The position numbers were made by a program, and so were the translations under genes. 36,324 nucleotides of DNA, from NCBI GenBank assembly GCA_964514585.1, contig CAZETU010000007.1, positions 1 through 36,324 on the forward strand, in the 5' to 3' direction. Below are positions 1 to 3,734 of this stretch, piece after piece. Under the pieces are notes generated by a model. It made no database searches and had not been told where the DNA came from. It saw only the letters and a program-made list of their open reading frames with translations. Source of the DNA: Candidatus Woesearchaeota archaeon (lineage in GTDB: Archaea; Nanobdellota; Nanobdellia; Pacearchaeales; GW2011-AR1). Each line of letters opens with the position of its first letter. Position 1 is the stretch's first letter.

Positions 1-2
1 TT

Positions 3-176
3 AGTAGGATGAAAGAGAAGCTGAAAGTTTTGGAAAATTATGATAAGTGGTTTTTTGTTGTGACTGATAGAAATAAAGTGAGAAAATATAAGAAACATGG
101 AGATGCTGTTGACAAACGATATGTAAAATCTAGGCTAGATAAACTGATAAAAATGGCAAAAAAAGCCCAAAAATAG
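3..176 (+). CDS. 3' end of a gene entering from the left edge (…SRMKEKLKVLENYDKWFFVVTDRNKVRKYKKHG…KAQK*), function unknown
   Basis: Open frame from the window edge to TAG at 174-176, translated by hand; Lys-rich composition like neighbouring genes. Confidence 0.45.
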   Translation, partial: SRMKEKLKVLENYDKWFFVVTDRNKVRKYKKHGDAVDKRYVKSRLDKLIKMAKKAQK

Positions 177-245
177 GACTCTGGTTTTTCGGGTATCAAA
201 TAAGGTTTATCGTCGATTAGAATCGCTAGAAAAAGCCAAAGAGTC
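177..245. other. Imperfect stem-loop immediately after the upstream stop (possible terminator or structured UTR)
   Basis: GACTCTGGTTTT (177-188) pairs with AAAAGCCAAAGAGTC (231-245), with one bulge and one G-U pair; inner CGAT-TAGA-ATCG hairpin. Confidence 0.35.
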
Positions 246-304
246 AGTCGGCATAATATGTATATATGATAGTACGGACGTGGGGGCTTAACTGGGACGT
301 TTCG

Positions 305-346
305 TACGTCCACCAAATAGTAATATTTATAAATATGGTAGACGTA
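305..346 (+). promoter_or_regulatory. TATA box (TTTATAAA 326-333) of the fic gene flanked by an 11-bp inverted repeat (putative operator)
   Basis: TACGTCCACCA (305-315) / TGGTAGACGTA (336-346), 1 mismatch; perfect 14-bp palindrome ATATTTATAAATAT at 323-336; TATA starts 29 nt before the ATG. Confidence 0.55.
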
Positions 347-354
347 TAAAAAAC

Positions 355-1248
355 ATGGCTTACACAGAAATAAAAGAAAAGAATGGGAGGAAATATTATT
401 ACAGAGTAAAGTCCATTAAATTGAATGGCAGGGTATCAAAGGAACGAATCTATCTTGGAGTCAATTTAAACAAAGAAGAATTAATTAAAAAAGAAAAAGC
501 TGCAGATAAAAAATTAAACATTTTCGATATTGTTTTGACAAAAGATGAAGAAAAATTCCTAGAGCAAATTAAAAGAGATTTTTCGAAAGAGCCAAGGGAG
601 AATTATGAAAATAGGTATGAGGCTTTCTGTTCATTATTCACTCATGACTCCACAGGTATTGAAGGAAACACATTAACATTTTTAGAAACTTCTCATTTGT
701 TGTTTGAAGGAATTGTTCCAAGCACGAAATCCTTAAGGGAAGTTCATGAAATTTTGAATCACAAAAAGGCATTTGACTATATTCTAAATTACAAAAAAGA
801 CTTAACAAAAGAATTTATTTTGGGGTTGCATCATTTAGTTGTTGCAAATACCTTAAGAGAAGAGTTGGCTTCCCAGTCTGGAAAATATAGAACTGTTCAA
901 GTTTTTGTTGGACAACATATTCCACCAAAGCCCCATGAAGTTCCGAATAAAATGGCGACCTTGCTTAGATGGTATTCGGTCAACAAAAAGAAACTTCATC
1001 CAATAATTTTGGCTTCTCATTTTCATACAGAATTTGAAAAGATACATCCTTTTGTTGATGGCAATGGAAGGGTCGGGAGATTATTGATGAATTTTATCTT
1101 ACACAAGAATAAATATCCTATGGTAAATATTCCGAAGAAAAGGAGATTCAAATATTATGAAGTGCTACAAAATGCCCACAAAGGCAATTTGAAGGGCTTT
1201 GTCGGGCTTTTAATTGGCATTCTAAGGAAAGATAGGTTGAGGTTTTGA
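355..1248 (+). CDS. Fic-domain protein (AMPylase-type) with N-terminal inhibitory motif
   Basis: Intact Fic motif HPFVDGNGRVGR; STGIEGN fits the (S/T)xxxE(G/N) inhibitory helix; basic N-terminal extension. Confidence 0.92.
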   Translation: MAYTEIKEKNGRKYYYRVKSIKLNGRVSKERIYLGVNLNKEELIKKEKAADKKLNIFDIVLTKDEEKFLEQIKRDFSKEPRENYENRYEAFCSLFTHDSTGIEGNTLTFLETSHLLFEGIVPSTKSLREVHEILNHKKAFDYILNYKKDLTKEFILGLHHLVVANTLREELASQSGKYRTVQVFVGQHIPPKPHEVPNKMATLLRWYSVNKKKLHPIILASHFHTEFEKIHPFVDGNGRVGRLLMNFILHKNKYPMVNIPKKRRFKYYEVLQNAHKGNLKGFVGLLIGILRKDRLRF

Positions 1249-1375
1249 ATTAGTAGATGTTGTGAAGTTACCTTTATTTCTATTCATGAGTCGCACAGCA
1301 GGATAACTAATTATATTAATTACTCAGTAGTAACAATATAGAAAGATTTATAAACTGTTTTTTTATCAATATATT

Positions 1376-2167
1376 ATGACAAAAAGCATAAAAGTTGAAT
1401 CTCAAGTGATTCGAGGTTTTGAAGCATCTATTGCAGATAGTAAGCTCTATCAAGAAGTAGCCAAAGGTGTGGCTGAAAAATTTGGCAAAGATTCTAAGGC
1501 TTATCAAACATTAATGAATGGAATTGATACTAAAAATGGAACGGGTTCACAATTTTTCTTTAATACTGAAGCAGAATCATATCTTCCTGAAGGTCAAAGA
1601 GTTGCAAGATTAGCTGACCTTGGAAAAATTTATGATGCGGACACTTCTTTTTTTAAGGGAATTTATACCGATACTCCTGAATTAGTTTTAAGAACAGATA
1701 CTCCTTCGTGGAAAAATAATACTCCGATTTTGGAAAATTTAGTCAAGCAGGTAAGAGAAAGGGAATTAGAGTTTTCTTCAGATAACCCTTTAGTTCTTTC
1801 AGGTCTTGAATTAACTAGAGATGACAATAAAGCGAATCCTTATGGAATCTTGGTTAAAATAGGAGACAATACCGTTGCAGTAAATGACCTAAGATTTGCT
1901 TACGGAAAAGATAAAATTCAGGTTAGAAATAAAACAAAAACATTATGGACTAAAGATAAAGGGTTGTCTAGGGTTTATTTCGACAGGAACGGCTACGTCA
2001 GCTCCCGTGATGGCAACTTGCAGGTCTCCGATGGCGGTGGTCGGGTGGTGGTTTTTAACGCCGAAGGCGTCGCATCAGAAAATTTAGAATTTGAAGCTAT
2101 TAATCAAAAATATCAGTTTGATTTATCTACACTAAGAAATAAGATTGATGCTAAACTAGTACAATAA
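1376..2167 (+). CDS. DGR variable (target) protein, probably with a CLec-type fold as in archaeal DGR targets
   Basis: Contains the VR encoding LSRVYFDRNGYVSSRDGNLQVSDGGGRVVV; own TATA (1347-1354); the fold is inferred, not computed. Confidence 0.9.
   Translation: MTKSIKVESQVIRGFEASIADSKLYQEVAKGVAEKFGKDSKAYQTLMNGIDTKNGTGSQFFFNTEAESYLPEGQRVARLADLGKIYDADTSFFKGIYTDTPELVLRTDTPSWKNNTPILENLVKQVRERELEFSSDNPLVLSGLELTRDDNKANPYGILVKIGDNTVAVNDLRFAYGKDKIQVRNKTKTLWTKDKGLSRVYFDRNGYVSSRDGNLQVSDGGGRVVVFNAEGVASENLEFEAINQKYQFDLSTLRNKIDAKLVQ
1963..2042 (+). repeat. DGR variable region (VR)
   Basis: 80-bp ungapped match to 2338-2417 with 11 mismatches, all at TR adenines (9 A>G, 2 A>T). Confidence 0.95.
2058..2070 (+). 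promoter_or_regulatory. Post-VR hairpin ACGCC-GAA-GGCGT (candidate DGR target-recognition stem-loop)
   Basis: Perfect 5-bp stem with a GAA loop starting 16 nt after the VR core, inside the coding sequence. Confidence 0.7.
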
Positions 2168-2198
2168 AACCTATAAAGGGTTCTAATTTTCTAAGATT

Positions 2199-2228
2199 CC
2201 TAGCACCTTCATTGAAGAATGGGCTAGG
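2199..2228 (+). other. Stem-loop upstream of the TR (possible TR-RNA structural element or target terminator)
   Basis: CCTAGC (2199-2204) / GCTAGG (2223-2228) enclosing CTTCA-T-TGAAG. Confidence 0.45.
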
Positions 2229-2337
2229 CCACACGCTCTTTTATTAAGACTCTTGGGGTCAGTAAAATTCATTTGCGACAATTAGTAAAATATTGAACAT
2301 TGAAGCAAAGGTGGCAATTGGTAAAAAGAGCTACTCT

Positions 2338-2417
2338 GTTGTCTAGGGTTTATTTCAACAGGAACGGCAACGTCAACTCCCATAATGACAACTTGCAGAA
2401 CTCCAATGACGATGGTC
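2338..2417 (+). ncRNA. DGR template region (TR)
   Basis: AAC/AAT-rich copy of the VR, 24 adenines, located just upstream of the RT ATG. Confidence 0.93.
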
Positions 2418-2446
2418 TAATGGCCAAACCCTTGCTAGTTATACTT

Positions 2447-3487
2447 ATGAAAACTTACAATAAACTTTATCAGAAAATTTACTCTTATGGTAATCTATAC
2501 TCCGCATATCAAAAAGCAAGAAAAGGAAAAACTAAGAAACTTTATATTAAAGAATTTGAAAGTGATTTGGATAAAAATTTAATTGACCTCCAATTTGAAC
2601 TTATGAATTTTACCTATTCTCCGAGACCGTTAGATAATTTTATTCTTAAAGACCCAAAAACTAGAAAGATTTCAAGGTCACATTTTAGGGACAGAGTGAT
2701 TCATCATGCTATAATAAATATAATCGGAGCTATTTTTGAAAAGATATTTATCTATGATTCTTGTGCTAACCAAAAAGGAAAGGGCAATTTATTTTCAATT
2801 AAAAGATTTGAAACTTTTAGAAGAAAGATAACTAAGAATTTTAGTAGCAGAGCTTTCTGCCTAAAAGCAGATGTTAAACATTATTTTCAGGAAGTTGACC
2901 ATGAGATATTACTCAAAATAATCAAAAATAAAATTAAAGACAAGAAAGTTATATTGCTTATCAGAAAGACATTAAAAAAGAACGCTGGTGGTGAAAAAAC
3001 CAAAGGGATGCCTTTAGGAAATTTAACTAGTCAATTTTTCGCTAATGTTTATTTGAATGAGTTGGATTATTTTGTTAAATATCAATTAAAAGCTAAATAT
3101 TATATTCGCTATGTAGATGATTTTGTGATTCTTCATCAAAATAGAGAGCAACTTAATAAGTGGAAAAAGGAGATTGAAAATTTTTTGGCAGAAAAACTAA
3201 ATTTAGAACTTCATCCTCAGAAATCCAAAGTAGTTTCTTTATCAAAAGGCGTCGATTTCGTAGGGTTTAGAAACTTTTATCACTTTAAACTTTTGAGAAA
3301 AAGAAACCTTTGAAGTATGCTAAAGAAAATTGATACTTATAGGGATAAGCTAGTCAGCAAAGAGAAGATGATGGAAATTTTTCAGGGATGGAATGCCTAT
3401 GCAAAATGGGCTAACGCTTTCAAATTGCGGAAAAGTATTCTATCTAAAATAAATAAAATTCATATACTCAACCTCGACAATCCTTAA
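2447..3487 (+). pseudogene. DGR reverse transcriptase interrupted by an in-frame TGA at 3311-3313 (288 aa truncated; 346 aa if read through)
   Basis: Motifs RDRVIHHA, KADVKHYF, GMPLGNLTSQFFANVYLNELD, YIRYVDD, GVDFVGF; the same frame continues after the TGA as SMLKKI…FQGWNAYAKWANAFKLRK to TAA 3485-3487. Confidence 0.88.
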
Positions 3488-3544
3488 AAAGTCTACTAGT
3501 CTTACAAACAGCAACGATAAAATAAATATCAATCAAAACAAAAA

Positions 3545-3719
3545 TTTGTCCCCTGACGATGCCAAGAGTGGATGGTCGACGGCGGGAGCATTCATTTGAA
3601 CCCCTTGGGGTTTAAGGAAAATCCTTAGATTTTTCTTAGGAATCTTTGATTCCGGCCGAGCTTCTTTGAAGCGACAGCAAATCCCGGCGGGAGAATTTAA
3701 TCTTAAGCTTAAACCCCAA
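3545..3719. repeat. GC-rich intergenic element containing a 12-bp perfect inverted repeat and internal hairpins
   Basis: TTGGGGTTTAAG (3605-3616) / CTTAAACCCCAA (3708-3719); hairpins GCTTC-TTT-GAAGC and TCCC-GGC-GGGA; 9-bp direct repeat CGGCGGGAG (3580, 3685). Confidence 0.5.
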
Positions 3720-3734
3720 AAATCAAAACAACAC

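Follow-up and report, generated by a model that had tools for sequence, protein, structure and literature searches.

The window, that is, the whole stretch of 36,324 nt analyzed here, belongs to a MAG of 18 contigs (89.65% complete) from an archaeal (DPANN) host with a genome of ~1 Mb, which has a full-length archaeal SSU rRNA (1316 bits) and an archaeal-type PheT. Its left end is occupied by most of a segmental repeat of ~5.64 kb, in which a 390-aa gene, a 301-aa gene, a Fic gene, the target gene of a DGR with its variable repeat (VR), an RT-16 RNA motif, the template repeat (TR) and the RT gene follow one another in this order (Table 1). The VR lies inside the target ORF, in its 3′ part, as it does in DGRs, and the target itself matched no Pfam or NCBIfam family. 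The RT-16 RNA sits between the target stop and the TR, which it abuts; it was matched in the same way in locus L001 and probably makes up the structured 5′ portion of the DGR RNA. A search for Avd (PF05635) in the 89.65%-complete genome returned none, and the cassette contains no Avd-sized ORF. Avd is not universal among DGRs, and the DGR of the window may work without it or with an unrecognized partner.

Table 1. Features of the DGR cassette (window coordinates, except where another locus is named)
Feature	Coordinates	Strand	Remarks
Part of the ~5.64-kb segmental repeat within the window	1..3591	+	Right end: homology to C10, L001, L007 and L119 stops at 3591
Fic/DOC-family gene, within the repeat	355..1248	+	Pfam PF02661, E 6.5e-25
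DGR target gene, 263 aa	1376..2167	+	Contains the VR
VR, 80 nt	1963..2042	+	11 mismatches to TR, all at TR adenines
RT-16 RNA motif, Rfam RF03019	2199..2339	+	83.3 bits against a gathering score of 50, E 1.1e-11
TR	2338..2417	+	Ungapped 80-nt alignment to VR
RT, N-terminal 288 codons	2447..3310	+	PF00078, E 1.1e-22; homologues begin MKTY
In-frame TGA in RT	3311..3313	+	AGA (Arg) in intact copies
Orphaned thumb coding region, 57 codons plus TAA	3314..3487	+	Aligns to bRT residues ~279-315
Tracts in the RT genes of relatives	L113:630-650, L114:975-995, L115:970-985, L116:1065-1085, L102:1474-1500		Window equivalent ~2975-3000

The repeat starts ~2.05 kb upstream of the window's contig start, at a left edge formed by a 55-mer that the end of contig C5 and the start of contig C9 of the same genome have in common. 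The 390-aa, 301-aa (weak DUF6097 match) and Fic genes are duplicated along with the DGR, and a third, diverged paralogue of this three-gene part (80-91% nucleotide identity) is found at C1:127137-130896, with no match to an RT, target or TR beside it. At L118:1-430 (= L104:1111-1535), the junction of the 390-aa and 301-aa genes shows 70 differences in 425 nt within otherwise near-identical sequence, as if a diverged paralogue had donated a conversion tract. The right edge of the repeat is crossed by a GC-rich intergenic stretch (3548-3700) in which CGGCGGGAG occurs twice (at about 3577 and 3686) and whose palindromes include AACCCCTTGGGGTT; neither ARAGORN nor Rfam identified a tRNA or known RNA at this boundary (3548-3720), the best permissive match having an E value of 0.76.

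The RT gene is interrupted at codon 289, where the window reads AGA AAA AGA AAC CTT TGA AGT ATG CTA AAG. Beyond the TGA, the frame stays open for 57 codons up to a TAA at 3485-3487, and translation of 2300-3490 through the stop gives one continuous RT, which passes from FRNFYHFKLLRKRNL across the TGA into SMLKKIDTYRDKLVSKEKMMEIFQGWNAYAKWAN and ends in DNP. The initial annotation, made from the sequence alone, had described a DGR RT with an in-frame TGA at 3311 and 57 further open codons, and this description was borne out. Because 57 stop-free codons are expected by chance in only about 2% of cases at 38% GC (an estimate), and because the tail (P0134) matches the RT thumbs of relatives with E values down to 2e-21, the tail region is real coding sequence. 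Gene callers place in it a 56-aa ORF that starts from the ATG at 3317, two codons past the TGA. The RYVDDF motif and every column invariant in a 17-sequence alignment are preserved in the window RT, which agrees with the earlier view that the palm (YVDD) is intact and that no other lesion is visible. The same alignment confirmed GWNAYAKWAN as a conserved C-terminal motif: the tail includes QGWNAYAKWAN, and its invariant residues K294, G314, W315, Y318, W321 and A322 are all retained. No further lesion was found in any haplotype carrying the TGA, the N-terminal ORF, tail ORF, TR and target all being intact. With a premature stop that removes an essential domain present in the full-length orthologues, the window copy of the RT has the character of a pseudogene.

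A homologue search, in which 8000 candidates were scored, nearly all at E <= 1e-10, listed proteins of 331-396 aa that cover 93-100% of the read-through sequence, and thousands of homologues proved to be full length; the idea that homologues normally end at the position of the TGA was thus refuted. Homologues are labelled Nanoarchaeota, Pacearchaeota and Woesearchaeota. At the column of the stop, the 17-sequence alignment has Arg in the three closest sequences (98, 88 and 87% identical) and K, L, F, N or I in the others. At the DNA level, AGA is carried by locus L001 and by contig C10 of the window's own genome; since intact copies read AGA at codon 289, the lesion corresponds to a single A>T change, and the TGA is indeed one substitution away from an Arg codon, as had been proposed.

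The consequence of the stop for the enzyme was examined through its structural relatives. The Pfam RVT_1 match spans residues 79-284 of the read-through RT, and the best PDB match is the Bordetella bRT (8ub7_A, E 1.1e-41), with residues 3-327 aligned to 4-315. An AlphaFold model (pLDDT 80) gave a Foldseek TM score of 0.72-0.75 against 8ub7_A over 327 columns, so that the PF00078 match and the top PDB match, by sequence as well as by fold, place the RT in the DGR clade. In this model, the thumb consists of three helices (277-299, 305-321 and 325-345), and residue 289 falls within the first; the uninterrupted part of the gene therefore covers the N-terminal extension, fingers, palm and only the first 12 residues of thumb helix 1. 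Both the bRT alignment and the model uphold the earlier statement that the thumb is lost through the stop. The bRT thumb makes contact with the template:primer duplex and has a single-stranded "Thumb Ring" RNA wound around its base, and substitutions in the Thumb Ring lower cDNA synthesis (bioRxiv 10.1101/2023.10.23.563531). Because the three-helix thumb is absent and the bRT thumb holds both the duplex and the Thumb Ring RNA, the 288-residue product should be catalytically dead, judging from structure.

A whole-genome search with an intact homologue returned a second RT fragment, at C10:2-415. Contig C10 begins inside the RT gene, and its RT ORF is free of stops over the assembled part. The window and C10 share 92.7% identity over 522 nt ending at window position 3591, past which purQ/purL-type genes follow in the window and a Methyltransf_33 gene in C10. 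The two right flanks of the repeat are thus those of C7 and C10. On the left side, the shared 55-mer is the terminal sequence both of C5 (UvrA, Peptidase_M29), at its end, and of C9 (zf-AN1 protein), at its start, and the repeat opens with these 55 nt in L011 and L104. The JGI contigs L105 and L106 connect these C5 and C9 flanks to the cassette at 100% identity, and L106 ends in sequence that is identical to the beginning of C10. All four unique flanks are present once each in the MAG. Moreover, the same longest contig, of 218,800 nt, is listed for six proteins, namely, P0122 (the truncated RT), P0125 (the intact RT), P0138 (the target), the methyltransferase, Peptidase_M29 and the zf-AN1 protein, a coincidence that would be difficult to account for if the two copies lay on separate contigs. 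Each chromosome very probably holds two cassette copies, which are near-identical (about 99%). Copy A, in the window, adjoins purQ/purL and always carries the TGA; copy B adjoins the methyltransferase gene and carries AGA in the window's own genome.

Several explanations would deprive the stop codon of its apparent meaning. An assembly or consensus error, or two binned strains standing in for two paralogous copies, might be suspected in a MAG of 18 contigs in which C10 starts inside the RT, but T3311 is present in 14 contigs (the window's NCBI contig and 13 from JGI or ENA, the carriers including L004-L011, L104 and L117-L119) from at least 12 assemblies and three pipelines, which refutes the consensus error that the initial annotation had left as an option. 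The exact 56-aa tail product was likewise recovered on 9 contigs (NCBI, JGI and ENA), and 10 members of the RT 90% cluster (15 contigs; NCBI, JGI and ENA) end in RKRNL. A mixture of strains fits poorly with four unique flanks that occur once each and share the repeat-edge 55-mer, or with the single 218,800-nt contig listed for both RT forms and three unique flank genes, and we find an artifact of either kind hardly credible. Read-through or recoding of the TGA would give some full-length RT and attenuate DGR activity, and the frame does run on into a perfectly conserved tail; however, none of the 35 tRNAs in the genome has the anticodon UCA, and no tRNA-Sec was found. The TGA also behaves as an ordinary stop, ending 106 of the 525 long ORFs genome-wide and 11 of the 37 large ORFs in the window, and same-frame ORF pairs joined by it are not in excess (29% of TGA-ended long ORFs, versus 45% for TAA and 25% for TAG). 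Furthermore, TGA-A is a common context of genuine stops (36 of the 106 real TGA stops), and TGA-C, the expected leaky context, is rare. Read-through, another of the options raised initially, is accordingly unsupported and in our view very improbable. Two more specific forms were rejected on these grounds: an alternative genetic code (4 or 25), TGA being an ordinary terminator in the window and genome, and programmed TGA recoding (Sec, Trp, Gly or suppressor tRNA), with no cognate tRNA and no excess of TGA-joined ORFs.

A two-piece RT, in which re-initiation at ATG 3317 would produce a 56-aa thumb peptide that joins the 288-aa body, is suggested by the stop-start order TGA AGT ATG and by a tail ORF that every TGA haplotype has kept intact. 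We nevertheless regard a functional split enzyme as very unlikely, because the break falls in the middle of helix 277-299 of the model and at no domain boundary, because the Met is already conserved in intact homologues and is thus not an adaptation, because no GGAGG-like site precedes ATG 3317 even though the 16S rRNA ends in CCUCC, and because no other lineage has a stop at codon 289. Regarding this last point, a search for stand-alone thumb ORFs in other lineages returned seven matches, including P0134, and none of those from elsewhere has a stop at codon 289: L107 reads CTA there, L108 is frameshifted further upstream, and P0143 is a relic that stands alone. A conserved split architecture was rejected for the same reason.

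We then compared the RT alleles across loci. The coexistence of two alleles in the population, which the initial annotation had suggested, is supported, TGA and AGA being present in about 15 and 5 contigs, respectively. All eight contigs with the purQ/purL flank carry TGA, and those with the methyltransferase flank carry either AGA (L001, C10) or TGA (L007, L119). The occurrence of TGA in the second copy of some samples points to gene conversion. T3311 always occurs with a silent A3298 and A3311 always with G3298, a constant linkage that suggests a single origin of the TGA. The A3298/T3311 pair is nonetheless found on at least five local backgrounds. In L117, it is flanked on both sides by copy-B-type sequence within 82 nt, and in L119 the sequence switches from A-type to B-type between 3311 and 3341. 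No two neighbouring variable sites between 3061 and 3539 are as much as 141 nt apart, so that at the k of 141 used for the assemblies they fall into a single bubble, and the mosaics should be present in the reads; they look like short gene-conversion tracts between the copies. A metagenome search with P0001, in a search set without close relatives, gave matches 53-66% identical and added no haplotypes.

Variation in the repeats themselves followed a simpler pattern. The TR was identical in every locus spanning it, as was the 141-nt stretch that contains it (2300-2440) in the seven loci compared (L001, L004-L008 and L011). Only two VR alleles were found among 13 VR-spanning contigs, each of them invariant across the samples carrying it. 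All substitutions relative to the TR fall at TR adenines, both in the VR of the window (11 of 11) and in the second allele (15 of 15), which is carried by L004, L005 and L011 and also has an in-frame 3-nt deletion relative to the TR, at window positions 1993-1995. An in-frame VR indel has also been reported for lineage-4-related DGRs (PMC5758913). Compared with each other, the two alleles differ at 13 positions, every one at a TR adenine, and by the 3-nt in-frame indel. They correspond to three variants of the target protein: P0138 is on one VR allele, and P0137 and P0139, the latter also differing at residue 9, are on the other. Loci L104 (52,751 nt) and L004 (52,748 nt), which come from two samples, are identical over 8.2 kb except in the VR, and mutagenic homing therefore occurred on a background that was otherwise undiverged.

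Both VR alleles occur with both right flanks, P0138 alone being listed for the 218.8-kb contig. Among methyltransferase-flank contigs, VR type 1 goes with AGA (L001, and C10, whose genome has its sole assembled VR, of type 1, on C7) and VR type 2 with TGA (L007, L119), a pairing that amounts to 2 versus 2-3 contigs. It hints, as a lead only, at a lineage with both RT copies broken (VR type 2), which would be a frozen sister lineage. The VR and the copy-specific sites lie roughly 700 nt apart, with identical DNA between them, which makes short-read linkage between VR and copy insecure.

In our view, the TGA is likely to be a nonsense allele of recent origin that abolishes the function of one redundant RT in a duplicated DGR cassette, and not a lock on the VR. 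An A>T change would have made Arg codon 289 (AGA) of the copy A RT into TGA, and translation would stop there, so that the 288-residue product would retain the N-terminal extension, the fingers and the palm and have no thumb. The allele would then have become fixed in copy A, where every assembly seen carries it, and gene conversion would have taken it, together with the linked silent site, to a number of haplotypes, among them copy B of some samples. In the window's genome, the two cassettes probably depend, in trans, on the intact RT of copy B, because the TR is identical across loci and DGR components can act in trans, as avd, TR and brt do in the Bordetella DGR (PMC5758913, section 13). 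The initial annotation had called this DGR frozen or switchable. The first term is not supported for the window's genome, since the second cassette (C9/C10) has an intact RT and an identical TR, and this RT probably serves both cassettes. The second is apt insofar as gene conversion appears to move the allele between copies, but the site has no repeat tract or other means of fast switching.

The same observations could also be read as the mark of a selected "off" allele, spreading through both cassettes by gene conversion once a good VR has been found. A TGA that is present on at least five local haplotypes, always with A3298, that forms mosaics in L117 and L119, and that outnumbers AGA about threefold in contigs would fit such a spread, as would the pairing of TGA with VR type 2 and of AGA with VR type 1 next to the methyltransferase gene, and the persistence of only two invariant VR alleles. 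However, the pairing involves very small numbers and depends on an insecure linkage between the VR and the RT 3′ end, and neutral conversion between 99%-identical repeats yields the same pattern. VR stasis, for its part, says little, because the sampled genomes are nearly clonal, L104 and L004 differing in nothing but the VR over 8.2 kb. We therefore regard selection for the off allele as unlikely, although not negligible. We are just as doubtful of a population on/off polymorphism of targeted hypermutation, kept by conversion between paralogues, in which VR type 1 would have one live RT and VR type 2 none.

Broken DGR RTs are common in the window's clade: in 40 related genomes, a stop or frameshift was observed in 6 of about 16 other RT loci. 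In five of the six disrupted loci, the frame shifts precisely at a tract of poly-G (G6-G12) or (AG)11 that lies in the loop preceding KGMPLGN, and such a tract (poly-G G6-G12 then CGA, or (AG)n) is present in about 23 of ~100 related RT loci (Table 1). The window RT has no tract in this loop, which reads GCTGGTGGTGAA, and no homopolymer or short tandem repeat at 3311, where the surrounding sequence is AACCTTTGAAGT. The possibility of a slipped-strand phase-variable locus was rejected, there being no repeat at the disruption site. A literature search on phase variation of DGR RTs returned no relevant paper. In another archaeal lineage, an isolated 61-aa RT-thumb relic lies beside ribosomal protein L1/L10 genes (L109:3001-3186, also in L110-L112), with no RT body adjacent; the relic, which JGI misnames a PadR regulator, appears to be what is left of a decayed DGR.

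On its own, a redundant RT gene with a nonsense mutation is nothing unusual; broken DGR RTs are frequent in the clade. What the case illustrates is that a single locus does not suffice to pronounce a DGR dead, since the system can be kept running by a second, near-identical cassette, and that gene conversion can shift a disabling mutation between copies. A population with two alleles and two copies across many samples also offers a convenient natural system in which to ask whether the loss of an RT stops VR turnover.

Among known systems, the DGR of Bordetella phage BPP-1 offers the closest structural reference. Its bRT (8ub7 series) has the same domain order of N-terminal extension, fingers, palm and thumb, and both DGRs have a TR/VR pair with adenine-only differences. 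The DGR of the window is, in contrast, archaeal, has an RT-16 RNA 5′ of the TR and no Avd that we could find, and its RT is cut at the residue aligned to about K279 of bRT, which leaves it without a thumb. The DGRs of DPANN and CPR genomes (PMC5758913, PMC8144416) share with it the RT clade, a compact target-TR-RT layout and the in-frame 3-nt VR indel, whereas the cassette of the window is duplicated at about 99% identity and one of its RT copies has a population-wide nonsense codon. As in systems with trans-acting DGR RTs (PMC5758913, section 13), one intact RT and identical TRs could serve two targets, but in the present case a TR and an RT gene remain with each target, one of the RTs being broken. 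The poly-G and (AG)n frameshift tracts of relatives likewise disable the DGR RT and leave TR, VR and target intact; the lesion of the window, however, is a point nonsense mutation 330 nt downstream of the loop, without built-in fast reversal, and its off-state is of a different, slower kind than tract switching. There are precedents for DGRs in DPANN archaea, for broken RTs and for RTs that act in trans; what is new is the duplication of the cassette, together with evidence for a nonsense allele that moves by conversion.
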